Virus record (IMG/VR): IMGVR_UViG_3300015214_000024
Location: 169,787 to 233,786 of that record
DNA: 64,000 bases
Origin: a virus
Lineage: Duplodnaviria > Heunggongvirae > Uroviricota > Caudoviricetes
Reading direction: 5' to 3' (one strand)
Part shown: in pieces, positions 10,245-47,896 of the stretch
How the letters are laid out: the number at the start of each line of letters is the position of its first letter
How positions within the stretch are numbered: the stretch's first letter is position 1
The notes under the pieces: model-generated
What the model was told of the DNA's origin: nothing
The model's database searches: none
What the model saw: the letters and a program-made list of their open reading frames with translations, nothing else
Position numbers and translations under genes: made by a program

Positions 10245-10445
10245 TGACACGGACTAAATAGTGTAGTAAGTTTAGAACATAAGTTGAAACAAATTTTAAG
10301 GAAAGCAGTTACCATTATGTCACATTCAGTTTATCATTATGAATATGAGCGTGAATATCTCCGTCCAGGGGAGAGTTGGTAACGAGTATTTAAAATACTT
10401 CGACTGAACCGATTCAACCCTGGGACTGAAATCCCAGGGTTTTTT
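10245..10445 (+). promoter_or_regulatory. Attenuator 1: promoter, leader 10317-10382 (MSHSVYHYEYEREYLRPGESW), antiterminator and terminator
   Basis: TTGACA promoter; H/Y/E-rich ORF; AACCCTGGGA/TCCCAGGGTT-TTTT terminator. Confidence 0.85.
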
Positions 10446-10454
10446 CGTTTTTGT

Positions 10455-10531
10455 GGTGGCATAACGCAAACAGGTGAGCGGACTGACTGTGAATCAGTTG
10501 TTAGAGGGTTCAAGTCCCTTGTGTCACACCA
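10455..10531 (+). tRNA. tRNA-His(GUG), A73 type
   Basis: Cloverleaf, loop CUGUGAA, CCA. Confidence 0.9.
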
Positions 10532-10550
10532 AACATTATTGGAGTGAAAA

Positions 10551-10739
10551 ATGGAAGTATTTGTAATCAAAACTGAAGAAGTTGAACGAACGCTTAAATT
10601 TTTTACCCAATTGGGTTTAAATTTTGTTCAAGAACAACACGGTAATGGACCAATCCATTACGCTTGTGAACAAAATGGAGCAGTTTTTGAAATTTACCCT
10701 AAGGGTAAAACTGAAGGTTTTAAATTTATAGATATGTAA
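10551..10739 (+). CDS. Small VOC/glyoxalase-like protein
   Basis: FFTQLGL.F..EQHG.GP.HYA...VFEIYP. Confidence 0.65.
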   Translation: MEVFVIKTEEVERTLKFFTQLGLNFVQEQHGNGPIHYACEQNGAVFEIYPKGKTEGFKFIDM

Positions 10740-10744
10740 TTTTT

Positions 10745-10831
10745 GGGTGGTAAAAGTCAGTGGTTCTGATAGGCAGTCTGTAAAACTGCGCCTTTTCGGA
10801 GGGAGTAGTTCGATTCTACTACCACCCACCA
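10745..10831 (+). tRNA. tRNA-Tyr(GUA)
   Basis: Loop CUGUAAA, long V-arm, CCA. Confidence 0.85.
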
Positions 10832-10840
10832 AGAAATTAT

Positions 10841-10916
10841 GGTGACTGAAGTGTTGACGGATACACGCTTGGTTGTGAACCAGGAGTAACGGGCTCGATA
10901 CCCGTTGGTCACCCCA
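10841..10916 (+). tRNA. tRNA-His(GUG), G-1:C73 type
   Basis: Loop UUGUGAA, CCCA end. Confidence 0.9.
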
Positions 10917-10922
10917 AATTAT

Positions 10923-10998
10923 GCAACGGTCTTCTAATGGTTAGGAACCCTGACTTTCAATCAGGCCAATGCGAGTTCAAGTCTCGTCCGTTGCACCA
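10923..10998 (+). tRNA. tRNA-Glu(UUC)
   Basis: Loop CUUUCAA, CCA. Confidence 0.9.
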
Positions 10999-11157
10999 AA
11001 GCTTGTGCTTTGTGACCCTTCATACGCCCGAGGGTCAGAAAAATATCAGGATGCTGATACGGTATTATATACTAAAGGCATTGGGACCGCGCAGTACGCA
11101 CTACGGCTGAGTCATAAGGACTGAATAGTAGATGCTCGGTAGCGGCGAGCAAAATAT

Positions 11158-11229
11158 GGCGCGGAACGCTAGAGGCGGGCGGCTTGCCTTTCAAGCAAGT
11201 GTAAGCGGGTTCGATACCCGTCCGCGCTA
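11158..11229 (+). tRNA. tRNA-Glu(UUC)
   Basis: CUUGC-CUUUCAA-GCAAG arm. Confidence 0.8.
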
Positions 11230-11234
11230 CTACT

Positions 11235-11307
11235 GGCCCGGTAGTTTAGAGGTTAGAACGCGAGGTTTTCACCCTCGAGAGCGGGGTTCGATGTCCCCGT
11301 CGGGTCA
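11235..11307 (+). tRNA. tRNA-Glu(UUC)
   Basis: CGAGG-UUUUCAC-CCUCG arm. Confidence 0.85.
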
Positions 11308-11322
11308 CAAAAAGGAGTTTAT

Positions 11323-11550
11323 ATGAGTAACACTTTTAAGATTGAACGTGCTAGAAAACTTTACAAAAGCGATAAACCGAGTAAAGATATGAAGTTGACA
11401 GGCACTGGGGAAACTTGTATGAATGGTGATCCATTGTTTGTTAATAATGGTGGCCAACGTTGGGGCAACCAACGTAAAATGAGGGCAAAGATGAAAGTTG
11501 ATGCTCGTAAGTCAGAGAGAATGAAGAACAAGAAGATTGATTTGGAATAA
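11323..11550 (+). CDS. Small basic hypothetical protein
   Basis: AAGGAG RBS, K/R-rich ORF. Confidence 0.65.
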   Translation: MSNTFKIERARKLYKSDKPSKDMKLTGTGETCMNGDPLFVNNGGQRWGNQRKMRAKMKVDARKSERMKNKKIDLE

Positions 11551-11558
11551 AAGAATAT

Positions 11559-11647
11559 GGGTGAGCTGCTCAGATGGCGGATGGGCACCGGACTGTAAAT
11601 CCGGCACATAAGAAACATAGTAGGTTCGAATCCTACCTCACCCACCA
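11559..11647 (+). tRNA. tRNA-Tyr(GUA)
   Basis: CCGGA-CUGUAAA-UCCGG, CCA. Confidence 0.9.
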
Positions 11648-11665
11648 AAATGATGGAGATAATGC

Positions 11666-12055
11666 TTGTTTAAAAATTCTAGAAAACAAGGTGATGCTGG
11701 CTTGGGTCAAGCAATAGCTTGGTTGACTATGAAAGGATATGCTATTAGTATTCCACTAACTGACAATCAAGATTATGATCTAGTTGCTGAAATTGACGGT
11801 GATTTAAAGAAAATTCAAGTCAAGACCGGAACTAGAATTAGTGATAATGGTATTGGGATGATCTATCTTAATGTTGATGGGGGAAATCGAAGCGGAACCG
11901 GTAAATTTAAAAATTTAGACGACCAACATTGGGATTATTTATTTGGTTATCATTTGGATACAAAAGAGATTATTTTTATACCTAAAAATGAAATATGCTC
12001 AAAAAGCCAAATCAATTTAGGTGAAAAATATAGAGACTGGATTTCAAAAATCTAG
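11666..12055 (+). CDS. PD-(D/E)XK homing-type endonuclease
   Basis: QGDAG..YDLV..KIQVKT motif of the group I intron-associated family. Confidence 0.8.
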   Translation: MFKNSRKQGDAGLGQAIAWLTMKGYAISIPLTDNQDYDLVAEIDGDLKKIQVKTGTRISDNGIGMIYLNVDGGNRSGTGKFKNLDDQHWDYLFGYHLDTKEIIFIPKNEICSKSQINLGEKYRDWISKI

Positions 12056-12276
12056 TCTTGAAACTAACTTGTAGAGGATCTGGTGAAAGGTATTTTATAC
12101 CGAAGGGACCAGCTATTCTACCGCGAGATGCGAGATCCGACCCCAAGTAAGTGGGAGTCAAACCGGGTAAGATGGCGTAATGGAAACATAAGCGTAGACT
12201 TACTTTGGGGAGATTGGAGGTTGTGCTACCGGCTAAGTTATGTTTGAAACAAGTTCTTACTAAGCTTGTTTCGTTT

Positions 12277-12361
12277 GGGTGATATGACACAGTGGAGGGT
12301 CACCAGTCTGTAAAACTGGCGCCGAAAGGCACGGTAGGTTCGAACCCTACATCACCCACCA
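12277..12361 (+). tRNA. tRNA-Tyr(GUA)
   Basis: CCAGU-CUGUAAA-ACUGG, CCA. Confidence 0.9.
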
Positions 12362-12378
12362 AATTTGAAAGGCTATGA

Positions 12379-12624
12379 ATGATTTTTACTATTGGTAAAA
12401 AAGAATGGTATGATCAATGGATAGTTGAACAAGGCCCGCTTTTTAAAAAACGTGGCAAAGATGATGAATACAGTGGTGGGTCTGCATTTTTATGCATTGG
12501 TAAAGCAATAAAAAATTGTCCGCCTGGATATGCAATTTACATACTTGACACTAATATTGATAATTTGTATGAAGTAAATGGTAATTTGCATATTATAGAA
12601 AGTTGTAGGATTTGTTTAATATGA
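12379..12624 (+). CDS. Hypothetical protein (paralog of 13990-14241)
   Basis: Shared TIG..WY..WI.EQG..FKK.G..Y.GGSA pattern. Confidence 0.7.
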   Translation: MIFTIGKKEWYDQWIVEQGPLFKKRGKDDEYSGGSAFLCIGKAIKNCPPGYAIYILDTNIDNLYEVNGNLHIIESCRICLI

Positions 12625-13022
12625 AAGCAAGTGTTTGTCAAATGTATGTCAATCCAGACGGTGTTATTCTCCGACGTTGTCCAGATATGGGCGAGCATCA
12701 GCAGATGGTTGACCAATGGATTAAAGATGCTAAGATAGAAGGTGAATATTTTGACGACGTTTTCTTCTTTAGTAATAAAGATGATTACAATACTTTAAAG
12801 TTTTTCAAATGATTTGTCCTTATACTTTTGAAGCTTTTAACTTTAAAATAATGGTTAATACTAGGCAAATAATGAAAGATACAGCCTTCTTTGAAGGACT
12901 TGATAGTCAGAATATTGATTTTCGGTTAGGGTGGAATAGTTGGCCACCAGATATGGCAGTTGGTCCTATTTGGTTTAAGACTGAAGAAGACTTAAACATT
13001 GCTAAATTATTATTATAATAAT

Positions 13023-13099
13023 GGCCCCAGCGTCTGACACGGATAGGACACTAGCCTCTCAAGCTGGAGAACCGGGTTCGAGCCCCGGTGGGGCTACCA
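13023..13099 (+). tRNA. tRNA-Glu(CUC)
   Basis: Loop CUCUCAA, CCA. Confidence 0.9.
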
Positions 13100-13309
13100 A
13101 AGGAACAAATTATGTTTGATACCTTTACTGCACCAAACGGTGAAGAATATGAATTTAGGTTAACTGAACAATTGAGGCCATTAGACCAACGCCAATGGCA
13201 AATAATGGACTTGTGCAAAAATACCAATATACCTTACGTCTATTGGAATGGATGGTTTTATTTTAAAACTATTGAAGATTACACTACTATAATTTTAATA
13301 TTTTAAATT

Positions 13310-13382: not shown

Positions 13383-13476
13383 TATGAGTCAAAACTACTA
13401 AAGACGAATGGTAGAGTCAGCCCGCTCTTATACGGGATAATAGCTGGTTCGATTCCAGTTAGTAGTTTTGGCCATA
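13383..13476 (+). ncRNA. tRNA-like RNA with extended acceptor stem, no CCA
   Basis: D, anticodon and T arms closed by a ~17-bp stem. Confidence 0.6.
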
Positions 13477-13623: not shown

Positions 13624-13713
13624 AGCCAGGCGGCGGGAGTAGAACAGTGGTACTTCACCTCCATCCCAGGAGGAGATTGTAGGTTCGATTCCTACCTTGC
13701 CGCCCGTCCTGGC
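13624..13713 (+). ncRNA. tRNA-like RNA (Gly-like) with extended terminal stem
   Basis: CCUCC/GGAGG arm, GUAGGUUCGAUUCCUAC T-arm. Confidence 0.5.
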
Positions 13714-16763: not shown

Positions 16764-17385
16764 ATGCTACGTGGTACACGTTTGATTGAGGGCAAGGAAG
16801 CTCAAACATTTAATGAAGTAATTGATACCTTTCGGAGGTTAGTTCATCCAGTCTGATTTCGAAGAAATCATTGTTCCCAGTATTTGGGAACAAGAAACCT
16901 TTTTGGCCAAAACTGGCCCAGAACTATCTAAACAAATGTGGACCTTTAAGGATAAAGGTGATCGAGACGTTTGTTTGATTCCTGAAGTTACCGGTATTTT
17001 TCAAGAAACTTGGCGTGAAAAATGGTCCAAGTCAATGAAATTCCGTAAAGTGTTTTACGTACAACGCTGTTATAGGTATGAAAGGCCGCAAGCTGGCCGT
17101 TATCGTGAATTTACGCAATTGGGTATTGAAATCCTTGGTAACTATGATAATGGTGATCAAGAGGCTCAAGATTTGTTGAAAGCTGGTCTTGACGCAATTG
17201 GTGTAGAGTATGAATTTGATTCAACCGCGACACGTGGTCTCGGATACTACACTGAGCTTGGTTTTGAAGCTCGTTGCGAATCACTTGGTGCGCAAAAGCA
17301 AGTAGCAGGCGGCGGCCGTTATGCTGAAGGTGTTGGATGGGCTATTGGTGTTGACCGACTGGTTTTAGCTAAAATGAATAAATGA
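16764..17385 (+). CDS. hisS: Minimal histidyl-tRNA synthetase, split by a +1 frameshift at ~16845
   Basis: MLRGTR N-terminus in frame 0; +1 frame gives FEEIIVP, LIPEVT, RYERPQAGRYREFTQ, RGLGYYT, GGGRY, GWAIGVDRL. Confidence 0.85.
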
Positions 17386-21334: not shown

Positions 21335-21557
21335 TTGACTCCGGACTAAATACATTATATAAAGTATAAATAACTTTGTAGAAACTTTTATAGGAAAGTG
21401 AATTTAAAATGTTAAACCTAGTACTCAATCCAGTTAATTTGTTAGGACTCAATCCTAATCAATTGCCTGTGGGTGACTCGGGGACAGCATTTTAAAATCT
21501 AAATAAAAGATTTAAATGAAGGTTACCCCGGGAAACGCAAGTTTACCCGGGTTTTTT
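21335..21557 (+). promoter_or_regulatory. Attenuator 2: promoter, leader 21409-21495 (MLNLVLNPVNLLGLNPNQLPVGDSGTAF), antiterminator and terminator
   Basis: TTGACT and TATAAATA promoters; L/N/P-rich ORF; CCCGGGAAAC-GCAA-GTTTACCCGGG-T6 terminator. Confidence 0.87.
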
Positions 21558-21567
21558 ATTGCTTACA

Positions 21568-21689
21568 AGAGTTTAGTTTAGAGTGTGGTGAAATGGTAAA
21601 CACGGGCGGCTAATAACCGCCCCCCACAGAGGAAACGAGCATTTAAATGAACGTTGCTGGTTCGAGTCCAGCCACTCAAAACTAAACTT
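21568..21689 (+). ncRNA. tRNA-like RNA, AAU anticodon, extended acceptor stem
   Basis: GGCGG-CUAAUAA-CCGCC; ~16-bp terminal stem; no CCA. Confidence 0.6.
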
Positions 21690-22243: not shown

Positions 22244-22325
22244 GGGGCTGTGGCTAATGCGAATGGTACAGCTAATAGTTTTAGAAACTATGCTTTTGAG
22301 AGTTCGAGTCTCTCCAGCCCTACCA
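22244..22325 (+). tRNA. tRNA-Leu(UAG), short V-arm
   Basis: AUAGU-UUUAGAA-ACUAU, CCA. Confidence 0.8.
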
Positions 22326-22439
22326 GTTTAATTACTGATGCTATTTGACATTGTTGATTGATTTATGTTACTGGTAGGACCTAAAAGATCCTATCAGTGC
22401 CAGGAAGGTAACGGGTAGTGCTGACTACTTCCTGGATTT

Positions 22440-22513
22440 GCTCCTGTAGCCCAAATGGAAGAGGCGGCAGTTTCAAACACTGTACAGTGTGAGTTCGAGT
22501 CTCACCAGGAGCA
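22440..22513 (+). tRNA. tRNA-Leu(CAA), short V-arm
   Basis: GCAGU-UUCAAAC-ACUGU. Confidence 0.85.
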
Positions 22514-22517
22514 CAAG

Positions 22518-22615
22518 ATGATGGTTTAGTCAGGGGTTAGCTCAATTGGTAGAGCACCTGGTCTGGAGCCAGGGGGTTGGGAGTTCAAGTCTCCTGCTCC
22601 TGACTAAACCATCAT
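22518..22615 (+). ncRNA. tRNA-Pro(UGG)-like RNA with ~13-bp acceptor extension
   Basis: Full cloverleaf flanked by AUGAUGGUUUAGU/ACUAAACCAUCAU. Confidence 0.7.
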
Positions 22616-22623
22616 ACTTAAAT

Positions 22624-22699
22624 GCGGTTGTGGGCAAAAGGTAAAGTCGGCAAACTTAAAATTTGTGTCATATTGTGGGTTCGAGTCCCACCTACCGCA
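22624..22699 (+). tRNA. tRNA-Leu(UAA), short V-arm
   Basis: GCAAA-CUUAAAA-UUUGU. Confidence 0.8.
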
Positions 22700-22952
22700 C
22701 AAAAAGATGAAAAAGGCGTTGACAACGTTTTAACATCAAGTTAATATGCGAAACAAGAAACGTACTTAACAGTAAGTTTTTCGTTTAGTGGTATTTCTTT
22801 AATAGCCCTAATAGGCTGGGATTACGGAACGCTATGTTGAAGGACATAACTCGGAAATCCCCGTGTGAGGCGGTCATCCAAAGTGGTAGTCGAATTATGG
22901 TTGGAAGAAACGGAATGTAAGGACCACCGAAATGGTGCAAGGCCATTATAAC

Positions 22953-23027
22953 CGGGGATTAGCTCAGCCGGGTCAGAGCGCCTGCTTTGGGAGCAGGAAG
23001 TCGTAGGTTCGAATCCTACATTCCCGA
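22953..23027 (+). tRNA. tRNA-Pro(UGG)
   Basis: Loop UUUGGGA. Confidence 0.9.
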
Positions 23028-23184
23028 CAATATTAAGCAATGCTGTCATTAAGTAGTAATATTTTTTGATAGGAAAGGCAGCCATTATGGCGGTAAGCTG
23101 GATATATCCATTAACTCAATCATTTGGGTGTGGAATAGCCCGAGCAGAAGTTGGGATCAGGTCCAACCGTTGTTTAATATTAAT

Positions 23185-23268
23185 GCCCTAGTGGTGAAAT
23201 TGGTAGACACACTAGATTTAGGTTCTAGCGCCAAAAGCGTGGGGGTTCGAGTCCCTCCTAGGGCACCA
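23185..23268 (+). tRNA. tRNA-Leu(UAG)
   Basis: Canonical, CCA. Confidence 0.95.
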
Positions 23269-23272
23269 AAAG

Positions 23273-23935
23273 ATGGAGACGAGAATGGAAATTCTTAAAT
23301 TGAAGAATCCTTATCTAAATGGATTTAGTGATGAAAACGATCCAGTTGCTCTGCAATATTTAGATAAGCTGAAAGCGATTAAGGAAGCATTATCATCAGG
23401 CCGCCTCTATTGCCAATATATAGATGGCGATAGAAAAGGATCAATTGCAAAATTGATCCCAGATCCTGCCTATTCTCATATTGAGGATCGCGCGCCATCT
23501 ATTCGATATTCAAGTTCGCACTTTCAAAAAGGTCCTTGGTATCGATTTGAGAATGATATGTTTTTTATGATTGCGACTTGGAATGGCCGCAAGAATAAAG
23601 TTAAAGAAACTTGGTCATATTATAGTCAATTTGAATTTATTATTGGCGATGATATAGAAACTGTATGGCAAAAGTTTGATGCACAAACGGCTAAAGAAGA
23701 AGTACTCAAGAACCCCAATCAAAAGGATATTGATGGTAATGTTCTCAATGTCGGTGATGCAGTAATGTTTGTTAATGCACGTTATGGCTCACGAATGGTA
23801 CTTGAACGTGGCAGAATTAAAGAATTTAAAGTAGTGGTTGATTCGAAGAAAACTTCTATTTCAACTGTTATTGAGAATAGCGAAGGTGCTTTAAGTACAT
23901 TATCATATCCAGAAGATATGGTTTGTAAAATTTAA
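23273..23935 (+). CDS. Hypothetical protein
   Basis: 220-aa ORF between tRNAs. Confidence 0.7.
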   Translation: METRMEILKLKNPYLNGFSDENDPVALQYLDKLKAIKEALSSGRLYCQYIDGDRKGSIAKLIPDPAYSHIEDRAPSIRYSSSHFQKGPWYRFENDMFFMIATWNGRKNKVKETWSYYSQFEFIIGDDIETVWQKFDAQTAKEEVLKNPNQKDIDGNVLNVGDAVMFVNARYGSRMVLERGRIKEFKVVVDSKKTSISTVIENSEGALSTLSYPEDMVCKI

Positions 23936-23938
23936 AAT

Positions 23939-24024
23939 GCGGTTATGGTGGAATGGCAGACACACTATCTTGAGGGGGTAGCGAGAGAAATCTCATAAGG
24001 GTTCAAGTCCCTTTAACCGCACCA
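23939..24024 (+). tRNA. tRNA-Leu(GAG)
   Basis: Loop UUGAGGG, CCA. Confidence 0.9.
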
Positions 24025-24255
24025 AAAAGAACGTTGCGAGTAGCTATCGCATAGTTAGGCTGATATCCTGATGAAGAATCCAGTTAGCCCTGGAAAAACT
24101 ATCCCTGACTTGGAAAGCTGGTTGACATAACATATAATGTCACGTATTGGGATTTATACGATAAATTGAGCCGTGGAGGTGAGCGTTGATCTAGCTGATC
24201 TAAAGTAGGCTAGGGAGTGATCGGACCCGTGAAGCGGACAATTAAATCCCAACAT

Positions 24256-24332
24256 CTGGAAGTAGCGCAGCCTGGTAGCGTACCTCATTTGGAGTGAGGG
24301 GGTCGGAGGTTCAAATCCTCTCTTCCAGACCA
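24256..24332 (+). tRNA. tRNA-Pro(UGG)
   Basis: Loop UUUGGAG, CCA. Confidence 0.9.
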
Positions 24333-24340
24333 ATTATTGT

Positions 24341-24455
24341 GCGGATGTAGCTTAATGGGTTGGTCGAGCTAGATAAGACCAAACTTAGTGGCCACTAAGT
24401 AAAGCGGCAGGTAGTTAACCTGGAGAAGGTGGTTCGATTCCATCCATCCGAGCCA
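24341..24455 (+). ncRNA. tRNA-Asn(GUU)-like RNA with two hairpins in the D-loop
   Basis: D-stem GCUU/AAGC encloses two hairpins; GCCA end. Confidence 0.6.
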
Positions 24456-24590
24456 AAAAGAAATTGAACATATTTTGTTTGTGTGGGTAAAAGCATTGAC
24501 AACGTTAGTATTGCCTCTATAATCTAGACGTTGTGTGGGTTCAAGTCCCTGAGGAGGCTTCAGCTTTTTAACAGCAAATATGTCAATCAT

Positions 24591-24667
24591 TCCCCTGGGG
24601 TCCTATCGGTAGGGACGCCTGACTGTTAATCAGGTTGCTGTAGGTTCGAATCCTACCAGGGGAGCCA
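24591..24667 (+). tRNA. tRNA-Asn(GUU)
   Basis: Loop CUGUUAA, GCCA. Confidence 0.9.
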
Positions 24668-24896
24668 ATTAGAAATTCAAACTAATGATTAATTAGGAAA
24701 CTTGCCAATGGGTCGACACAGACGCAAGGATAATTTTTAAAAATTAGGGAGATAGGAGAAGTCCTGGGCGGGCGCCAACCTTTATGGCTAGCCGGCGCGA
24801 ATATAGGGTTCAATTCCTTATAGTGGAAAACAAAGTCGTGTTTTTCATCCTTGGGCAGGGTAGGTTCAATTCCTCGCTTCTCTGAACGCAACATAT

Positions 24897-24973
24897 TCCC
24901 AATGGGCCCTATTGGCAGGGGCACGACGCTGTTAACGTCGACGCTGTAGGTTCGAATCCTACATTGGGAGCCA
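24897..24973 (+). tRNA. tRNA-Asn(GUU)
   Basis: Loop CUGUUAA, GCCA. Confidence 0.9.
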
Positions 24974-24987
24974 ATTTGAGGTATGAT

Positions 24988-25410
24988 ATGAATTACAAAG
25001 GACATAAAGATAAAATTTATATTTGTGAAAATTGTTTTTCTGAAATAGCCTTCAAAGGCTATTCAAACAAGCACCGATTTTGTGATATGAAATGTGCTGG
25101 TGAATTTAAAGTTAAGGAAACTAAAGATAAAAATTTAAAATTATTCCTTCAAGGTAAATTAACGCGCAGGGATAGAATTTATGAAATATTAGTTGAACGC
25201 GATGGTAATTGCTGTTCTGTTTGTAAAATTACCGAATGGAATGGTAAAGAAATTCGTTTATGGGTTGACCATATTGACGGAAATGCTACCAATAATTCAC
25301 CGAATAATTTTAGACTGATTTGTCCAAATTGTGATTCACAAAGTGAAACTTTTGGAGCCAAGAATCGAGGCAATGGAAGAAAATCAAAAGGATTACCGCA
25401 ATATGGGTAA
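24988..25410 (+). CDS. HNH endonuclease
   Basis: CSVC..VDHIDGN..NN...N.RLICPNC. Confidence 0.88.
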   Translation: MNYKGHKDKIYICENCFSEIAFKGYSNKHRFCDMKCAGEFKVKETKDKNLKLFLQGKLTRRDRIYEILVERDGNCCSVCKITEWNGKEIRLWVDHIDGNATNNSPNNFRLICPNCDSQSETFGAKNRGNGRKSKGLPQYG

Positions 25411-25413
25411 TAT

Positions 25414-25488
25414 TCCGGAGTAACTCAATGGTAGAGTAACTGGCTGTTAACCAGTAAGTTGGGGGTTCGAGTCCCTCCTCCGGAGCCA
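25414..25488 (+). tRNA. tRNA-Asn(GUU)
   Basis: Canonical. Confidence 0.93.
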
Positions 25489-25610
25489 TTAAAGTTTAGG
25501 CAAAAAGAGAAGGCGGTTAAATTCCGTCTAGGCGAGAGATCAAGGGCCCATTTATGGAGGTCTTGGCGAGAGAATATAGCATAATGTTAATGTGCTTTTT
25601 GTCTTACCAT

Positions 25611-25882
25611 TTTGGTATAGTGTAAAGGAAAAGTTCAGTAAGTTGCTGAAAAGTTTCTAATAAGCTTATCGGAGAATAGTGAAAGTATTAACAGTAGCAA
25701 ACGCAAAGGCTATAAAAACCGTGAGCTTGGGAAGGGCAAGACAGGCTGTTAATATGGAAACTGGGATTTGATAAGTGGATGATTAACTTAGTAAGTAGGT
25801 GAAAGGCTTAGTACGTGGTAGCACGCCGGCATAGCACTTGCGTTTTGGAGCCGGAAGTGAGGTTCGAGCCCTCTTACCAGAG
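25611..25882 (+). ncRNA. tRNA-Gln(UUG)-like RNA with ~190-nt D-loop insertion and 12-nt anticodon-loop insertion
   Basis: UUUGGUA/UACCAGA acceptor, GUGU/GCAC D-stem, CCGGC/GCCGG stem, T-arm. Confidence 0.6.
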
Positions 25883-25892
25883 CTAATAGAAA

Positions 25893-26071
25893 TTATCCAT
25901 CGTCTAAACGTGGTACTAACGATAGGGAGTGATCACCTGACAATAGGTCGATTGAAAATTAGTATTGAAATCTACCAATCACGTGTAAGGTAGAAAGTAA
26001 AGAAATGTTTCTTTCAGTTAGGACGCCGCCCGTGGAGGGCGGAAATATCAGCACACTGATTGGATAAACCA
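25893..26071 (+). ncRNA. tRNA-like RNA with ~110-nt D-loop insertion and reduced T-loop
   Basis: UUAUCCA/UGGAUAA-ACCA; GUCU/GGAC D-stem; CCGCC-CGUGGAG-GGCGG. Confidence 0.55.
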
Positions 26072-26185
26072 ATGTGTAGCTTAATTGTTGAGGATTTATT
26101 TTCAACAATTAGTTCGTAAGAATGTTCACCGTATGGTGTAGGACGTTCGGGATATAATTGCGGGGAGGGGCATTATATCATTCAT

Positions 26186-26261
26186 CTAGATGTGGGAAAG
26201 TTGGTAATCCGCCTGTTTCGGGAACAGGAGACCGCCGGTTCGAGCCCGGCCCTCTAGACCA
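26186..26261 (+). tRNA. tRNA-Pro(CGG)
   Basis: Loop UUCGGGA, CCA. Confidence 0.9.
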
Positions 26262-26325
26262 ATTCTTGACATAGCATTGAACTAATGCTATTAGATTTCT
26301 ATTAACAATTTAGCTCAGAAAGGAT

Positions 26326-27591
26326 ATGGCGATGTATGATCAGTATGTATGCGTAATGTTCCCGTATCCTAGTGGCGCTGGCCTGCATTTGGGTCATTAT
26401 TACAACTATGCTGTAATTGACTCATATGCTAGGTGGCAGCGTTTTAAAGGTCAGACGGTTTTTCAACCTTTTGGTTATGATGCTTTTGGCTTGCCTGCAG
26501 AAAACTATGCTCGCCAAATTGGCGGTGATCCTAGAACAATAACTAATCAAAATATTCAAAATTTCCGTAAACAAATGCGAAATATGAATACTTTGTATGA
26601 CGAACAGTTGGTTACTTGTGAAACTGATTACGTTAAGTGGACCCAATGGATCTTTAATGCTTTGAAAGATCGTGGATTAGCATACAAAGCTTGGGGTGAA
26701 GTAAATTGGTGTGAACAGTGCGGGACCGTGTTGGCTAATGAACAAGCGCAAAATGGCATTTGTGAACGCCACGGAACTCCTGTTGAAAAACGTCAAATGA
26801 ATCAGTGGTATTTCAAGATTACTGATTATACTGATCGATTGATTAAGAATTTGGACTGGATTGATTATCCGGAAGGGACTAAGAAGCAACAGCGCAAATG
26901 GTTGGAGGATCAGCAAGATTGGTGTGTCAGTCGTCAGCGTTCTTGGGGCTGTCCTATACCAATTGAAGGTGAAACTGACACCTTGGACACTTTTGTTGAC
27001 TCTTCATTTTATTTCTTGCGCTATTTGACTAAAAGTGAAGATGAGTTTTTGCCAGCTGATCAATACAAGCAAGTCGATCTGTATGTTGGTGGCCCAGAAC
27101 ACGCTTGTATGCATTTGATATATGCTCGTTTTATTCATATGGTTTTGTTTGATATGGGAATTGTTCCTGAAGAAGAGCCATTTAAGAAAGTTATTCATCA
27201 GGGTATGATTACCAAGGATGGGAACAAGATGAGCAAAAGTAAAGGTAATGCCGTTAGTCCTGATGACTATGATCCTGACGAATTGAGAATGTATTTGATG
27301 TTCTTGGGGCCATATTTTGAAGGTGGGGATTGGAGTGACCAGCATATTGTTGGTGTTCGCCGCTTCTTCAATAGGATGAAAACTTGGTTGGGAGAAGCTG
27401 GCACTGAAAATATTGACACTTCTCAGTTGGAAAATCAAATTGATCATTATGTTTCTACTTTCAAATTTAATAAAGTAGTTTCAAGTTTTATGGAATTTAT
27501 GAACAAAAATAAATCCAAAAAAGTTGATAATGAAACTCGAAATAAAATTGTCAGAATGTTGACTAATTTTGCCCCAGGGTTTCGAATTTAA
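26326..27591 (+). CDS. leuS: Minimal leucyl-tRNA synthetase (no CP1 editing or C-terminal domain)
   Basis: MFPYPSG.GLHLGH, DAFGLPAEN, DWCVSRQR.WG, DTFVDSS, KMSKSKGN; only 421 aa. Confidence 0.93.
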   Translation: MAMYDQYVCVMFPYPSGAGLHLGHYYNYAVIDSYARWQRFKGQTVFQPFGYDAFGLPAENYARQIGGDPRTITNQNIQNFRKQMRNMNTLYDEQLVTCETDYVKWTQWIFNALKDRGLAYKAWGEVNWCEQCGTVLANEQAQNGICERHGTPVEKRQMNQWYFKITDYTDRLIKNLDWIDYPEGTKKQQRKWLEDQQDWCVSRQRSWGCPIPIEGETDTLDTFVDSSFYFLRYLTKSEDEFLPADQYKQVDLYVGGPEHACMHLIYARFIHMVLFDMGIVPEEEPFKKVIHQGMITKDGNKMSKSKGNAVSPDDYDPDELRMYLMFLGPYFEGGDWSDQHIVGVRRFFNRMKTWLGEAGTENIDTSQLENQIDHYVSTFKFNKVVSSFMEFMNKNKSKKVDNETRNKIVRMLTNFAPGFRI

Positions 27592-27770
27592 GTAGTTGAC
27601 AGTGAATAGATTGTTTGCTACTATGAATACATAAGCAGTTAAGCAGTTTTGGTCCACGGTGGTTCCAGCAAATGTTGGAGGGTAGATGGTTCGAATCCAT
27701 TTAAGAAAACCTGGGTTAGGTTTAAACCAAAAGAGCGTTCAAATCGCTCCGCCAAAAACCGTTTAATTAT

Positions 27771-28724
27771 TATGCCCACTTGGCGGAATTTGAATATGAT
27801 AAACCTTGAAAATATTGTTGAATCTCTCAAAAGGCAATATCCTGAATATGATTATGAGATATTGAATAATAAGATTGGAATCTGGGATCCTCCTGGAAAC
27901 CATTATAAAGGAAGATACCATATACAAATTGCAGAATGTGAAATAACTGAAGACAAAAATTATGATCATAATTTTTGGATAGATTTTTTAGAAAAATGTA
28001 TCTTTATTCATAGAATGAATAAGTATAATTTTTAATTAAAATTTGCGTCAACTATAAATAAAGCTAAAAGGTAACTTTATGCTTTGTGATTATGGTTGCG
28101 AACAGGAATCAAATTTTGTTCTTAAAAATGGTAAAAATTGTTGCGCAAAGAGTCAAAATTCATGTCCTGCAATAAGGGCTAAGACTGGGGCAACTGTTAA
28201 GCATCAATTTAAATCTGGCAGTAGAAAACGTCAACCATATGTTTATGCTGATTTGCCTGATGAAACAAAAGAGAGAATGAAATGGAACAAAGGAAAAGAA
28301 ATTGTTCCAAACGAAATTGTGTTTGCTGAAAATAGCAAATATGATAATGATGTGGTTAAAAAAAGAATTTTACAAAACAATCTTTTAGATTATAAATGTG
28401 CCGAATGTGAGTTGACAGAATGGCAAGGCAAAAGTATAGTGTTGGAGTTAGAACACTGCAACGGCGTTCGAAACGATCATAGGATTGAAAACTTAAAGTT
28501 TTTGTGTCCAAATTGCCACTCACAAACGGAAACGTTTAGAGGAAGAAACAAAAACACTGGAAAAGTTATTGTTACTGATGAAGAGTTGTTGACAGCGTTA
28601 AAGTCGACTGCTAATATAAGACAAGCTTTACAGAGTGTAGGACTTGCTGCTAAAGGCGGAAATTATGCTCGAGTTAAAGCTTTAAAATTAAAGTTTAATG
28701 TTTAATATGCCCACTTGGCGGAAT
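27771..28724 (+). mobile_element. HNH-carrying insertion bounded by a 19-bp direct repeat of the tRNA-Leu 5' end
   Basis: TATGCCCACTTGGCGGAAT at 27771 and 28706. Confidence 0.65.
28079..28705 (+). CDS. HNH endonuclease
   Basis: CAEC..LELEHCNG..D.R.ENL.FLCPNCH. Confidence 0.88.
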   Translation: MLCDYGCEQESNFVLKNGKNCCAKSQNSCPAIRAKTGATVKHQFKSGSRKRQPYVYADLPDETKERMKWNKGKEIVPNEIVFAENSKYDNDVVKKRILQNNLLDYKCAECELTEWQGKSIVLELEHCNGVRNDHRIENLKFLCPNCHSQTETFRGRNKNTGKVIVTDEELLTALKSTANIRQALQSVGLAAKGGNYARVKALKLKFNV

Positions 28725-28864
28725 GGTAGACGCCAGGGACTTGTCGGAAAGAAACCTTAGGGTTTAGAACGCCACTTAGTATGGCGACGGTGCGAATCCG
28801 GAATCCGAAAGCTAAAATCCCTTGCCCTTTGGGCGTACCGGTTCGAGTCCGGTAGTGGGTACCA
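28709..28864 (+). tRNA. tRNA-Leu(UAA) with a 71-nt structured insert in the anticodon
   Basis: AGGGA-CUU^AAAA-UCCCU restored if 28743-28813 is removed. Confidence 0.8.
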
Positions 28865-29495
28865 AATGAGAAGTCGTATGGTTGGTTTCATACTACTTGA
28901 ATGATATAAATTGGGTTAACACAGTTTATATCAAACAAGCTGTCCCTGATAAGCCATATGTGGGAAGATAAGCTGCCCATTTGACTATGTAGCTTGAGTT
29001 ATTGTAAACGGAGATATAGTAATGACTGCTGCTACTTTTGCTGGACTACTTGTTATTATGTATGTCCTTTTTGTAATTGGTAAAGTTCTTGAAAACTACT
29101 TGCCTCAGAAGCAGCCAAGTTATGTTAGTGGCGCTGGCGCACCGGAACCTTCAGCAGAGGCTAAGGAAGCTGCCCGTCGTTATAGAGAGCAGAACCTAAA
29201 TCCGTTTTATTGATATGAAAAATCAAGAACCAACGGATGAACAAATAAATGATTACTTGGTTGGTAATCCGCATGAAAGTTGGTTTACAGCCAGAGAGAA
29301 ATTAAGAGATAAAGCTTATTCAGAAGATCACAAGAAACCGGAAGGTATGACTTGGGGTGAATATTGGAAAAGCTTTTAAAAGTTCGCACTGCCCGATATG
29401 AGTAACACTGAAAAGTGAAAAACTCGGAATTACTTAGCCCAAACACTTTGGGATGCAAAGACGGTAAGGAAAAAGGAAGTGACGGTGCGAAACTT

Positions 29496-29582
29496 GCGGG
29501 TATGGCGGAATTGGTAGACGCGACTGACTCAAAATCAGTTTCCCGAAAGGGAGTGGGGGTTCGAGTCCCTCTACCCGCACCA
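29496..29582 (+). tRNA. tRNA-Leu(CAA)
   Basis: Canonical, CCA. Confidence 0.95.
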
Positions 29583-29762
29583 AACTGGAAGGATTTAAAT
29601 CTTAGCAGTTTGACCTATTTGAATGCTATGTTAGATTAAACTGGCCTAAAGCTGCCAATCCTAACGGATCGTGGCATAGCAAACAAGTGGGACTGCTAAA
29701 CGTACTAAGCGGGATTGGAACATGTGCGTGACTTTGCTAAGTTTCAGAGTAAATTTAGCTAT

Positions 29763-29800
29763 TCTTCAGTGGTGGAACTGGTAAACACATTAGACTAAAT
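29763..29800 (+). pseudogene. tRNA-Leu 5' half
   Basis: GUGGUGGAACUGGUAAACAC D-arm, truncated just before an endonuclease ORF. Confidence 0.5.
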
Positions 29801-29805
29801 ACATT

Positions 29806-30384
29806 ATGAAGAATAATTGGAAAGAAATTCAGGAATATTACGACAAAGGTTTTAGTATTCGAGAATTGGTTGCACATTTTAAAATTTCGACTAAGTCAAT
29901 ACATCTCGCTAAAAAGCGTGGCGAGTTTGTGACCAGATCAAAATCAGAGAGTGCTTTATTAGTAAAGAAAAAATTTGGCCAGAAGGTATTGTCAAAATCC
30001 CATAAAGATAATATATCTAATGGTATGAGGGCGGCCCATAAAAATGGTAATGCTTGGAATATTGGCCAAAGTAGATGGAATAATGAACCAAGTTGGCCAG
30101 AACAATTTTTTATGAATGTGGTCGCAAATGAATTTGACGACAAGAATTATGAATATGAAAAACCATTTCATAAATTTAGTTTAGATTTTGTTTGGGAGCA
30201 TAAAAAGAAAGTAATAGAAATTGATGGTGAACAGCACGATCGCTGCTTTGAGCAACGTAGACGTGATGAGGAAAAAGATTCGTTACTCCATCAATATGGA
30301 TATGAAATTTTACGTATCAGGTGGAAAGATATGTTTAATGATCCAAAAGTTTATATTAAACTTGCAAAAGATTTTATAAACTAA
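29806..30384 (+). CDS. DUF559/Vsr-like endonuclease
   Basis: LDF..VIEIDGEQH..D..D..L...GY.ILR. Confidence 0.82.
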   Translation: MKNNWKEIQEYYDKGFSIRELVAHFKISTKSIHLAKKRGEFVTRSKSESALLVKKKFGQKVLSKSHKDNISNGMRAAHKNGNAWNIGQSRWNNEPSWPEQFFMNVVANEFDDKNYEYEKPFHKFSLDFVWEHKKKVIEIDGEQHDRCFEQRRRDEEKDSLLHQYGYEILRIRWKDMFNDPKVYIKLAKDFIN

Positions 30385-30387
30385 TAT

Positions 30388-30459
30388 TCCGATGTAGCTC
30401 AGCGGTAGAGTCGGTGACTGTTAATCACTTTGTCGGAGGTTCGAATCCTTCCATCGGAG
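30388..30459 (+). tRNA. tRNA-Asn(GUU)
   Basis: Canonical. Confidence 0.92.
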
Positions 30460-30930
30460 CAAAAAGGAAAATGGTATGACTTGGATGATTTATCCAGATA
30501 ATATTCCAACAGAATCAGGTTATTATATGACTTTATATTATAATCCTGAACGTAATGAAGAGCTTTACAAAGCTCTTTGGTTTAGTGTTGATATTGGTAA
30601 ATGGACTGGACCTTGGCCTTGGAATTATGAATATGGGAAAGAATTTACGACCACTGATGGTCATAAAGCTCGTCCTATAATTTGGAAGGGTATTGATGTA
30701 AAGAAATATCAACCATTATCAAAAGCTCGATAATATACCCAATGTGTGTATATTGAAGGATAAAAGAAAAGATATCGGCACCTAGTTGGTCGCCGGCGTA
30801 CTATGTGAGCACAAAACCAAATAGGTATCAGATATTTGGCACAAAAGCGTCACACATAAGCGGTTTGGGAGGAGGTCCGCGGTCTTTTCAATTTTTCCAT
30901 AAATATCTAAAAGATTTGTGGAGATCAAAA

Positions 30931-31380
30931 ATGAAATTATTTGAAATAGATCAAATGAAACTTGCTGCTAAAATGCAAGCCATTATTGATGATCCGAACA
31001 CTAATGAAAATGTTAGAGCAGTAGCTAAATCAAAACTTCAACAGCTTATTGATAGTAAAGCTGGCCAAAACGTAACTTATGCTTATACTGATTTTGGTGC
31101 TACTCAAAAGATTAAAGATTACAATAAGGTTTTTATGGTAATTGATCGAACCGTAATAACTTTTAGAGATATGGTTGATTCCATTAGAAAAGTTAATACA
31201 ACTTTTGTTGATTTTGACAATGGGACAACTGATAGTAAATCACCATCAATTATACTTAAAGTCAAAGACGATGGCAATGATGTGAGTGATATAATAAAAA
31301 ATTCTATTAAATCATCTAAATTTACAGTGTCAACAGTTGACAAAATAGATGATAATATGTATAAAGCATATATACAGTGA
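30931..31380 (+). CDS. Hypothetical protein (MKLFEI start)
   Basis: GGAG RBS; TAAATA upstream. Confidence 0.65.
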   Translation: MKLFEIDQMKLAAKMQAIIDDPNTNENVRAVAKSKLQQLIDSKAGQNVTYAYTDFGATQKIKDYNKVFMVIDRTVITFRDMVDSIRKVNTTFVDFDNGTTDSKSPSIILKVKDDGNDVSDIIKNSIKSSKFTVSTVDKIDDNMYKAYIQ

Positions 31381-31464
31381 ATAGAAAATGTGGATTGAAC
31401 AATTTATTGCGTCCGTTTTAAAGTTAAGTGAACTTGAAGCGAAGATCATTTCTTATCCATAAAT

Positions 31465-31541
31465 CGGGGATTGGCCTAGTCTGGTAAGGCGCTTGCTTTG
31501 GGTGCAAGAGATCGCGAGTTCGAATCCCGCATCCCCGACCA
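31465..31541 (+). tRNA. tRNA-Pro(UGG)
   Basis: Loop UUUGGGU, CCA. Confidence 0.9.
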
Positions 31542-35419: not shown

Positions 35420-36287
35420 TATAGGAGGTCTTGGTGGAAATTGTAATGGATGGCTATAAAATGTACATTATCAAGCACAAAGACAATGGGCAGATGATGA
35501 GATTTTTCCACGAGCAGAATTTACGCTGCGATTATGATTACTCAGCAGGTGAATATTGTTTTTACAATGAGGCAGACTATCTGGCTGCAATGATAATGAT
35601 ATGAGCAAGAAACGATTTGTGAAATTAATTCGAATCCAGGGTGAATATGCCAGACGGGTAGAATTTAAAGATTCATTAGATAAGCACGGCGTAAAATATA
35701 CTCAATATCATAACAATATTGGGCAGGAATTTATTTTTCACAAACCATCAGAATATGCGGCAGCAATGTTATTGATATGACTTACAGGCAATTTAGTTTT
35801 AAAGATGTTGACCCAAATACTCGTGTTGTGATCTTGGATGATTTTCAGCCTATGCATTTTTTTCATAAAATTTGGAAGTTAGAAGTTGATCGCGCAAATG
35901 ATATAAGTGAAGGATTGGCAGCTAATGAAATACAATACCAAGCCTATCTGAATAGAGACAATGGTAAGATAGTTTTCCATTTCAATAGTGAAGAAGATTA
36001 CACTATTGCAAAGTTTTTAGTATGAATGTAGATAAGCATCTTGAAAGATTATCGAGGCATTTTGCTACAACGTTTCCATATTTTATAAAAAAAGATTATT
36101 GTGAGTCAGATTGGTCTGATTTTTATCAATCCTTGAAAGATTATAATATTGTAACTGTTGCCCACGATGGTGGCTTTTATTTCAGAAATCACGATGATTA
36201 TTTGTTGGCACTTTTGTTGAAGTAAAGGTTGACAAAAGGTTTTCCATTTGCTAATATTAATTCATAATTTATAAACAAATATAGAAT

Positions 36288-36712: not shown

Positions 36713-36786
36713 GGGCGGTTAGTTAAATGGTATAACCTTGCTTTTACACAGCAATGTCGGGGGTTCAATTCCCTCACTGCCTACCA
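36713..36786 (+). tRNA. tRNA-Val(UAC)
   Basis: Loop UUUACAC, CCA. Confidence 0.9.
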
Positions 36787-39213: not shown

Positions 39214-39780
39214 TTAATTAACTGGATCAGTGATCACTATTGTATTGCCACGTAGCATAACATTGTCTGGATTGAAATCAAAATACTCAAAATTCTTAGC
39301 AATCAAGTCTAAAGCTTTTTTAATACCTGGCTGATTTTTATCAAGCTCGTCAATTTTGGCCAACATTGTTTCCGTGCCTTCTGGGCTCATATGCGATCTT
39401 GAATTTTTAACATAGTTTAGATAGTTGTAAACTGGCGCTAGACCTAACTGTATGTATTTGGCTTTATCAACTGGTTCGAGACGTTCTATCCTTATAGCAG
39501 TATATCGGTCATTAATTTGGAACATTTTTCCTTTGATTTTTGGAAAGTGATCATTAGGATTGGATAGAGTGAGGTTGATGAATTTCTTGTACGATGAATC
39601 GTCATTGTCGAAAATTTTAACAATAGTATTTTCGCCAGGTTTAGCCCACACGCTGGCATATGCACCGCGGCCAATTTTTTCATAGCCGTTAGATTTCAAT
39701 ATGTTACCTGCCAGCCCACGTGTCCTGGGCATATCTAATTCATTTAAAATTTTGTTATTGACAAACTCATCCAATCGCAT
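39214..39780 (-). CDS. Protein-kinase-like protein
   Basis: IGRGAYASV, IVK, DFNPDNVM..ITDP. Confidence 0.7.
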   Translation of the reverse strand: MRLDEFVNNKILNELDMPRTRGLAGNILKSNGYEKIGRGAYASVWAKPGENTIVKIFDNDDSSYKKFINLTLSNPNDHFPKIKGKMFQINDRYTAIRIERLEPVDKAKYIQLGLAPVYNYLNYVKNSRSHMSPEGTETMLAKIDELDKNQPGIKKALDLIAKNFEYFDFNPDNVMLRGNTIVITDPVN

Positions 39781-39859
39781 ATATTATGGTCCATATAAAC
39801 ACACCGATATTTATTGAAAAATAAATTCGAAAAATTTACAAAAAGTTTAGAAAAAGTGG

Positions 39860-40105
39860 TTGACACGGAATAAATAGTTTTGTAAAGTATAAATACATTA
39901 GCGCAGGAAGCGCATTTTAAAAGGAATAGGGAACTTCAAATGTTTACGAAATTTGGACAATTTAAGGGACAGAAAGCTGTTGCGACAGTCGCAGCGGATC
40001 GTATGACCTTTGATTGGGCCATTACGGAGGGTGTTCGAGAATAAAGTTTAAGAAAAAACTTAATTCGAAGGGCACCCGGGAAAAGGAAACTTTCCCGGGT
40101 TTTTT
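39860..40105 (+). promoter_or_regulatory. Attenuator 3: promoter, leader 39940-40044 (MFTKFGQFKGQKAVATVAADRMTFDWAITEGVRE), antiterminator and terminator
   Basis: TTGACA and TATAAATA promoters; ACCCGGGAAA/TTTCCCGGGT-T5 terminator. Confidence 0.87.
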
Positions 40106-41880: not shown

Positions 41881-42024
41881 TTGATCAGTAGCGTAGGATT
41901 GGGTTACTTCGATTGCAACTCGACCGATGGGGGTTCGATTCCCTCTTCCTCCACAAACTTTATGGGGGAATAGCTTAATGGACAAAGCGGTAAAATTTCT
42001 CGATTCGCCTTTATCTCTGATCAA
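41881..42024 (+). ncRNA. YrlA-like Y RNA 3 (GCA hairpin plus permuted tRNA domain)
   Basis: Shared motif; T-arm, then closed acceptor stem, then D-arm. Confidence 0.8.
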
Positions 42025-43755: not shown

Positions 43756-43897
43756 AAAAACCAGCAGCGTAGAAATGAGTTACTTCGACTGTTAATCGAC
43801 TGGTTGTGGGTTCGAATCCCACTCTCTCCTCCACTATGGAGAGATAGCTCAATGGTAGAGCGGTAAATTTCTTGTTTCGATTTTTTCTCTGGTTTTT
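43756..43897 (+). ncRNA. YrlA-like Y RNA 5 (GUU hairpin plus permuted tRNA domain)
   Basis: Shared motif; UCGA-CUGUUAA-UCGA, T-arm, closed acceptor, D-arm. Confidence 0.8.
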
Positions 43898-44993: not shown

Positions 44994-45125
44994 TTACAAG
45001 ATTCCAGTGACAAATTGAACAAGTGGAATCCACCAAGTAATTGCCGTGAACGGTGGTGGACACTTTAGTAAATTGGGTCTCACGACGCGGCAACGTCCCA
45101 GGTTCAAGTCCTGGCTGGTAAGCCA
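44994..45125 (+). ncRNA. Enlarged tRNA-like RNA
   Basis: T-arm CCAGGUUCAAGUCCUGG, GCCA end, weak acceptor. Confidence 0.4.
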
Positions 45126-45153
45126 TAAAACTTAGCAATCATCAATATCACAT

Positions 45154-45225
45154 ACCGAAGTAGCTCAATGGTAGAGCGCCGGCTTCCAATCCCGGGCGTT
45201 GTGGGTTCGATTCCTACCTTCGGTG
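45154..45225 (+). tRNA. tRNA-Trp(CCA)
   Basis: CCA anticodon; canonical D and T arms. Confidence 0.85.
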
Positions 45226-47341: not shown

Positions 47342-47896
47342 TTATGAAAGGATCGTTATGAACATTTATAAAATGTTGGATGAGTTCCCGTATGGGATTG
47401 TGGTCCTTGAGGGGGATTATGTTAAGCATATTTGTCTTTATCCTTCAATGCCCACACAAGCTGATGCTGAAGGATTGTACGATGAACTTCAAAAAGATCC
47501 GGAGCACGGAATGATTGGTGAAGATTTATCCAAGATGAATTTTTGTCCAGCCTCTGGCGAATTATTAAAAGAAGCTATAAGGGCATTTTCAAGTGAAAGC
47601 TATGAATAATAAGGATTTTGTAGAATATACCACTGATCCAGATTTATGGCCAGATCTTGTTGAGATCAGTGATATTTTAGTACGCTTCCCATTTTATATG
47701 AAATGTGATCAGTTCTCAGATGCGGTGTTATTGGCTGAACAATTTGACCGATATTTTGAAGACCAAGATTTGTTTATGGTGTGCAGACAATATGATAATT
47801 TTGTTTTCTTTGAGTCAGAAGAAGCAAGGGCTATTGCGGCAATAATTAAATAAAAGTAGTTGACAGACTATAAATAACATAGTAGATTATACAAAT

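Follow-up and report, generated by a model that had tools for sequence, protein, structure and literature searches.

A leader ORF matched to downstream tRNA genes as a candidate ribosome-mediated attenuator of a jumbo-phage tRNA operon

The reason why phages carry tRNA genes has been open for more than 50 years, the main ideas being static codon compensation and defence against tRNA depletion; clustered phage tRNAs in particular have been proposed to offset host defences that deplete tRNAs (PMC10264068). Here we ask why a block of such genes would be headed by a short open reading frame (ORF) and a terminator. The locus belongs to a Rak2-like jumbo phage (virus record of 455,147 bases) whose major capsid protein shares 69.5% identity with its counterpart in Sinorhizobium phage Phosso and 58-66% with those of Rak2-like jumbo myoviruses. 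Within the window, which is the whole 64,000-nucleotide stretch of the record that we analysed, about 60 tRNA genes, all on the plus strand, are sorted into three blocks: a His/Tyr/Glu block (10456-13100), a Leu/Asn/Pro block (22244-31541) with a LeuRS-like gene inside, and a 34-gene block (40117-61385) for Val, Phe, Ile, Met, Asp, Arg, Ala, Lys, Gln, Trp, Gly and Thr, with small ORFs interspersed among its tRNA genes. ThrRS, HisRS and LeuRS-like synthetase genes lie among or near these blocks. The tRNA at 22244 was called Ile by ARAGORN, which we rejected on inspection in favour of Leu-UAG, and apparent tRNAs with Asn and Cys anticodons in the 34-gene block (~41890 and ~43770) were set aside as YrlA-like RNAs.

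The 34-gene block is preceded by a compact series of plus-strand elements. A sigma70-type promoter (39860-39888; -35 at 39860-39865, 17-nt spacer, -10 at 39883-39888) matches the consensus at 10 of 12 positions, and transcription is predicted to start at ~39895. The predicted transcript begins with a small 5′ hairpin (39901-39913), followed by a Shine-Dalgarno-like purine tract (39921-39932; anti-SD duplex -6.3 kcal/mol) and by the leader ORF of 34 codons plus TAA (39940-40044; ATG at 39940). The 5′ strand of a putative antiterminator (40029-40036, last base of codon 30 to first base of codon 33) lies within the ORF, and an inner stem-loop that contains the stop codon (40039-40066) closes it. 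A switch segment (40070-40077) could either pair with 40029-40036 or give its last 4 nt to the stem of an intrinsic terminator, a hairpin with a U tract (40074-40105; 25-nt core -15.0 kcal/mol), and the first tRNA gene follows the terminator end by 11 nt. Two other identities for this region were rejected. An octamer at 39888-39895 resembles a T4-type late promoter and is conserved in orthologs, but the genome has 31 copies where 66 are expected, and they are scarce around the capsid gene. A T-box riboswitch was discarded when neither a stem I/specifier loop nor a T-box antiterminator matched in Rfam at gathering or E-value thresholds; no other Rfam leader matched at the unit. On the minus strand, at 39214-39780, a kinase-like gene of 188 residues (weak PHROG matches) is transcribed divergently from the attenuator promoter and adjoins it in all orthologous loci.

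The strongest link between leader and tRNA genes is one of composition. As originally noted, codons 1-29 use exactly 12 amino acids, Met, Phe, Thr, Lys, Gly, Gln, Ala, Val, Asp, Arg, Trp and Ile, and the 34 tRNA genes at 40117-61385 carry precisely the same 12; Glu is limited to codons 30 and 34. This set makes up 62% of residues at the phage's own amino-acid frequencies, under which the match over codons 2-29 has P=1.6e-6, and 0 of 95,554 28-residue windows of phage proteins fall within it. The cut at codon 29 is post hoc, so the whole ORF and a rule-fixed window were also tested: for the former, at least 31 of 33 residues in the set has P=3e-5, and the latter, codons 2 to N-6, has 27 of 27 in the set of its own block (P=2.7e-6). 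We take codons 2-28 (39943-40023) as the sensing window, based on composition, with a border from ribosome-occlusion folding; they hold all 12 amino acids of the downstream block, no others, and zero from the sets of the three other blocks described below. Each sensed amino acid is represented by one to five scattered codons.

The earlier claim went further and proposed that synonymous codons are cycled, as in a broad isoacceptor sensor, and this part did not survive. The codons listed in its favour are present, but the leader uses 20 distinct codons where 19.0 +/- 1.5 are expected (P=0.36), and it samples 17 of 21 anticodon classes where 15.6 are expected (P=0.24). Phe, Asp and Gly use one codon each within codons 1-29, and the Val-UAC, Arg-UCU, Arg-UCG and Gly-GCC tRNAs are the primary readers of no codon in the sensing window. 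The leader-tRNA match holds at the amino-acid level only, and codon-level sampling is without statistical support.

Is this leader unique in its genome? We searched the whole genome for strong terminators that have a short ORF and its ribosome-binding site ahead of them, and recovered this unit, two sister units in the window and a fourth unit on the minus strand. The first sister (10317-10446, plus strand) is a 21-codon His/Tyr/Glu leader with its terminator ahead of the 10456-13100 block (9 of 14 codons, P=3.6e-6), and the second (21409-21558, plus strand) is a 28-codon Leu/Asn/Pro leader with its terminator ahead of the 22244-31541 block (15 of 21 codons, P=1.2e-7). The fourth, outside the window at genome ~300,300, has a 15-codon leader with seven Ser codons before a Ser tRNA cluster (P=1.3e-4). 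Each of the four leaders is enriched for its own block only (P=3.6e-6, 1.2e-7, 2.7e-6 and 1.3e-4, with no significant off-diagonal cell), and together they cover 19 amino acids with no overlap between sets. The original explanation for the missing Ser and Cys codons, that no such tRNAs exist in the window, is correct for the window, yet both kinds are present in the genome, and a Ser-rich leader of its own precedes the Ser block. A search ahead of the two Cys tRNAs gave no Cys leader.

We next consider how such a leader could act on its terminator. The proposed pairing of 40029-40036 with 40070-40077 is borne out as an alternative to the terminator, overlapping its stem by 4 nt: the antiterminator takes the four base-proximal nucleotides of the terminator's 5′ arm. 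We modelled folding with the ribosome-covered RNA held unpaired and 5, 7 or 10 nt protected past the A site. In this model the antiterminator is fully formed in the nascent RNA with the A site up to codons 26-28, depending on whether 10, 7 or 5 nt are protected, beyond which the terminator closes. With 5 nt protected, the switch is predicted to fall between codons 28 and 29 in this unit and in its orthologs; with 7-10 nt, the sole Ile codon (28) would lie at or beyond the border. An untranslated leader is predicted to favour the antiterminator, leaving the terminator a probability of 0.03-0.06. The two folds of the full transcript are near-equal in predicted energy at equilibrium, and with a stalled ribosome the terminator often still wins in the model (closing probability 0.1-0.85 here and 0.8-0.99 in the ortholog L378), so antitermination would need a kinetic head start, with the antiterminator forming before the terminator. 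We found no conserved pause hairpin, and a hairpin at 39977-39997, the candidate for a protector or pause (1:2) element of the trp/his type, does not touch the antiterminator strand, nor is its sequence kept in orthologs.

Taken alone, the pairing of this unit is marginal against shuffles of the leader end (P=0.05-0.08); its support comes from conservation and from a test across units. Over 53 units, the end of a leader pairs better with its own terminator base than with a swapped one (-11.8 vs -7.9 kcal/mol; 0 of 100,000 permutations), and the leader end of this unit pairs at -14.1 kcal/mol with its own terminator, as against -10.6 at best for 64 other terminators of the genome. The geometry recurs as well: in 15 units the distance from stop codon to terminator is 29-40 nt, and 14 show pairing between the terminator base and the final codons of the leader. 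The folding measure is unusable for one unit (unit A of G002), where a local hairpin confounds it. The case for an antiterminator that excludes the terminator and is controlled by ribosome position thus consists of folding models and conservation.

Orthologs were reached through the divergent neighbour gene at 39214-39780, for which a search of a protein collection gave relatives. Neighbour searches of IMG/VR and JGI metagenomes yielded no close relative, a DNA search of cultured phages gave matches to tRNA genes only, and a promoter-pattern scan returned mostly unrelated contigs. Four distinct orthologous leaders (L378/L380, L381, L384 and L385) have 34 codons with no indels and are 50-64% identical in residues over codons 2-29. 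All four cover 12 of 12 amino acids within codons 2-28. Of 24 replacement states, 22 stay within the set; judged by frequency this has P=1.2e-3, and relative to single-base neighbours P=1.8e-5, although the states are not independent. Both exceptions are Asn, one each in two orthologs. Amino acids also shift position, Ile being at codon 28 here and at 5, 8 or 16 in the orthologs, which fits selection on composition. The -35 hexamer and -10 positions 1, 2, 5 and 6 are invariant, a similar Shine-Dalgarno-like tract is present, codons 30-32 and the switch segment are nearly invariant, and nine pairs of the terminator are invariant, while the inner stem differs between orthologs. Six antiterminator pairs are invariant and a seventh is preserved by a one-sided U-G to C-G change; given this invariance, the outer helix offers no compensatory change.

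These alignments bear on two other readings of the locus. In the first, the unit is an attenuator, and what stalls its ribosome is the nascent peptide together with a ligand (an antibiotic or metabolite), or a general slowing of translation, instead of a shortage of the matching tRNAs. The residues of codons 21-26 (Arg-Met-Thr-Phe-Asp-Trp) are indeed invariant in all five sequences, with synonymous changes in one, as an arrest peptide might require; the remainder of the peptide, however, turns over within the set, and leaders of other blocks and phages share no peptide motif and yet track their own tRNA sets. Any elongation inhibitor should, according to the folding model, also open the switch, but a general sensor would have no need to avoid the amino acids of other blocks. 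We consider stalling of either kind quite unlikely as the basis of the unit. In the second reading, what functions is the 34-residue peptide itself, or else the leader RNA once released, and the leader matches the tRNA block by accident. In its favour, the ORF is conserved, several assemblies annotate it as a gene, and an attenuator RNA with a function in trans is known in Sinorhizobium meliloti (PMC6614838). Against this, the peptide matches no NCBIfam or PHROGs family, a third to half of its residues change in orthologs, and an incidental match has P around 1e-6 here, and the match is seen again in many unrelated units; we find this reading scarcely credible.

Attenuation keyed to the tRNAs predicts that leaders in other phages follow the contents of their own arrays. 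G001, G003, G004 and Phosso each have one mixed tRNA array behind a leader with 18-20 amino acids in its window, that of G001 having 18 codons, each for a different residue. In G002, where the two blocks differ in content from those of our phage, the leaders differ accordingly: its larger block includes tRNAs for Asn and Cys and none for Gln or Asp, and the leader ahead of that block has three Asn, one Cys, no Gln and one late Asp, the reverse of our leader for Asn/Cys versus Gln/Asp. Among cultured phages, SCTP-2 has four units and blocks, each leader fitting its own block best, and Atu_ph07 has one unit. Atu_ph07 was reported to be without Asn and Thr tRNAs (PMC6102473), and its leader contains both Asn and Thr codons. 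In Atu_ph07 (MF403008; 323905-324023 and 335108-335213, minus strand) and SCTP-2 (MF360958; 298729-298847), we observed tRNA genes whose anticodon loops are interrupted by short structured inserts; by our own reading, these intron-interrupted genes would be Asn (GUU) and Thr (UGU) tRNAs after removal of the inserts, the two in the Atu_ph07 array supplying the types reported absent, although ARAGORN names them differently. Of 50 terminators before tRNA arrays on viral contigs, 38 have a short ORF ending 20-46 nt upstream, vs 9% at random positions, and eight of these 38 ORFs have all 20 amino acids in their window; the contigs were selected by a terminator-then-tRNA pattern and are partly related to each other. 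A scan found no leader-terminator cassette heading the tRNA arrays of BF, GAP32, Munch, 121Q, Paride, XacN1, XaC1, Vibrio 2.275.O, T5 or KVP40.

A further question is how much of the block the terminator would control. The first strong terminator within the block comes only at 57526, and promoter-like sites lie at 47860, 52395 and 57244; promoters are also found behind the terminator of Phosso. One could therefore read the terminator as a fixed, leaky stop or processing signal that gives a constant tRNA level, with a leader that is vestigial or matters little, most of the tRNAs being made from internal promoters. The internal sites agree with this, as does the predicted default of read-through when no ribosome is present. 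In addition, four runs of one straw metatranscriptome study contain the stretch as assembled contigs; those of three runs bridge the terminator and none spans 39755-39883. Such contigs cannot reveal ends, strand or level and may include DNA, and we did not use them as evidence on regulation. What argues against a fixed stop is that selection has kept frame, length, composition and antiterminator in diverged orthologs, and that the first 18 tRNA genes, for 10 of the 12 amino acids, precede the first strong internal promoter. We regard this reading as highly improbable. Nevertheless, the more distal tRNA genes, all those for Gly and Thr among them, may be transcribed from the internal promoter-like sites independently of the attenuator, which would then more probably boost tRNA output than gate it absolutely. 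For Val, Arg, Cys and Ala, further tRNA copies occur outside any attenuated block. Scattered tRNA genes lie at genome positions 250733, 255014 and 257314 (Arg), 262397 and 262635 (Cys) and 312566 (Ala), and the genome-wide scan found no leader-terminator unit ahead of the Arg, Cys or Ala genes. A lone Val-UAC tRNA (window 36713-36786), outside the three blocks, follows an HNH gene that has its own promoter-like site at 36229, and a weak terminator comes after it.

We conclude, with a probability of roughly 0.85, that the unit is a ribosome-mediated transcription attenuator that controls a phage tRNA operon and raises tRNA supply when decoding slows. Promoter and tRNA genes are separated by a short ORF, which has a ribosome-binding site and is enriched in codons related to those genes, and by an intrinsic terminator before the first tRNA gene. 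The original reading, in which a leader peptide samples the amino acids of the downstream tRNAs to set attenuation, is supported by the composition statistics, the folding geometry, the conservation in orthologs and the way leaders and tRNA sets covary between phages. The sequence itself shows the anatomy, the composition match, the mutually exclusive helices and the conservation, and the switch position comes from modelling; we infer translation of the leader, coupling of transcription to translation, regulation in vivo and the natural trigger. In the proposed mechanism, RNA polymerase, presumably the host's, would start near 39895, and a ribosome would load on the leader. With charged tRNAs plentiful for all 12 amino acids, the ribosome would pass codons 28-29 and cover 40029-40036 before the terminator is made; the terminator would then fold and transcription would end at ~40105. 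If the ribosome lagged at any of codons 2 to ~28, or did not initiate, 40029-40036 would capture the base of the terminator and polymerase would read through into the tRNA block. The new tRNAs would hasten decoding of the same codons, closing the loop. With four units of non-overlapping sets, the phage could raise only the tRNA group in short supply.

The sensor itself is unable to distinguish tRNA loss from amino-acid starvation. We think tRNA loss or damage (by host anticodon nucleases, PMC10264068, or infection-driven decay) the likelier selective cause: extra tRNA supplies no amino acids, which makes tRNA loss or failed charging the more plausible pressure, and the synthetase genes of the phage fit a failure of charging. 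Leader-peptide attenuation operates in S. meliloti (PMC6614838), the host of Phosso, which is the nearest cultured relative. A sensor that turns on tRNA genes when their own codons decode slowly would mean that those genes are there to repair a shortage.

The switch mechanism is of a known, textbook kind. Enterobacterial leaders that sense one or more amino acids include thrL (Thr/Ile), the ilvGMEDA leader (Ile/Val/Leu), pheL, hisL and trpL. In the E. coli pheST operon, attenuation through the pheM leader lets the supply of charged tRNA control a component of the translation machinery. The phage unit resembles pheST/pheM in the attenuation of a translation component, and this phage too has synthetase genes in or next to its tRNA blocks; pheST/pheM differs in sensing one amino acid, having a protein-coding target and residing on a bacterial chromosome. 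With the amino-acid operon attenuators, including S. meliloti trpE(G) (PMC6614838), the unit shares a promoter, a short codon-rich ORF, an antiterminator that overlaps an intrinsic terminator, and a fold set by ribosome position. Unlike them, it controls tRNA genes in a phage, and it senses 12 amino acids (18-20 in relatives) through scattered codons where they have runs for one to three amino acids; the final codons of its ORF also contain the antiterminator strand. Folding predicts no protector (1:2) hairpin, so transcription should continue past an untranslated leader; the S. meliloti trp leader, by contrast, causes termination when it is not translated. T-box riboswitches likewise read the charging state of tRNA to switch between terminator and antiterminator, but they bind uncharged tRNA directly and without translation, in contrast to the phage unit with its ORF under selection. 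Clustered tRNA genes are also found in T5, KVP40 and the Rak2-like phages BF, GAP32, Munch, 121Q, Paride, XacN1, XaC1 and Vibrio 2.275.O, although their tRNAs are not sorted into leader-matched blocks; T5 has several annotated plain promoters. In the literature searched, which included word searches of the Atu_ph07, AP-J-162 and jumbo-phage overview papers and left most subscription papers outside, we found no description of leader attenuation for tRNA genes. What is new is the choice of viral tRNA genes as target, a 12- to 20-amino-acid sensor, separately sensed blocks and a predicted default-on logic.

These comparisons suggest a broader picture, towards which we lean with some reserve: many large phages may audit the charged-tRNA pool in a closed loop, using codon-sampling leaders (for up to 20 amino acids, or for matched subsets) to turn on individual tRNA blocks as the corresponding tRNAs are depleted by host defences or stress. 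If so, phage tRNA arrays would be an inducible counter-defence and not static codon compensation. Each leader could then report which tRNAs run short during infection, giving a direct assay; three cultured phages that carry the cassette, Phosso, Atu_ph07 and SCTP-2, have tractable hosts. From a leader one can also predict which tRNAs an array contains, overlooked intron-containing ones included, and leaders could be used as compact biosensors of tRNA charging.

Several other features of this genome were observed. Two tRNA-like genes with irregular anticodon loops lie at window 13393-13468 and 13631-13705 (an 8-nt loop read as CUUA and a 6-nt loop), and G002 likewise has a CUUA tRNA call, at 96422. 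The first element behind the terminator of the second sister unit (window 21579-21680) is a Leu-type tRNA body with a long variable arm and AAU at the anticodon position. A HisRS-like gene (window 16764-17385) has a start frame that stops after 30 codons and a catalytic domain in another frame. Outside the window, at genome ~297,580-297,630 on the minus strand, a 16-codon ORF with four Ile codons lies directly 5′ of an IleRS-like gene; terminator scans found no terminator by it, and its control is possibly translational. Finally, the 34-gene block contains YrlA-like (Y RNA) elements at window 43770-43889, 41906-42009 and 45082-45205, whose T arm, looped acceptor stem and D arm come in a permuted order (the best has an Rfam YrlA E-value of 2.8e-6; all fall below the gathering score), and a TROVE/Ro60 protein is encoded in the window at 4893-6452.
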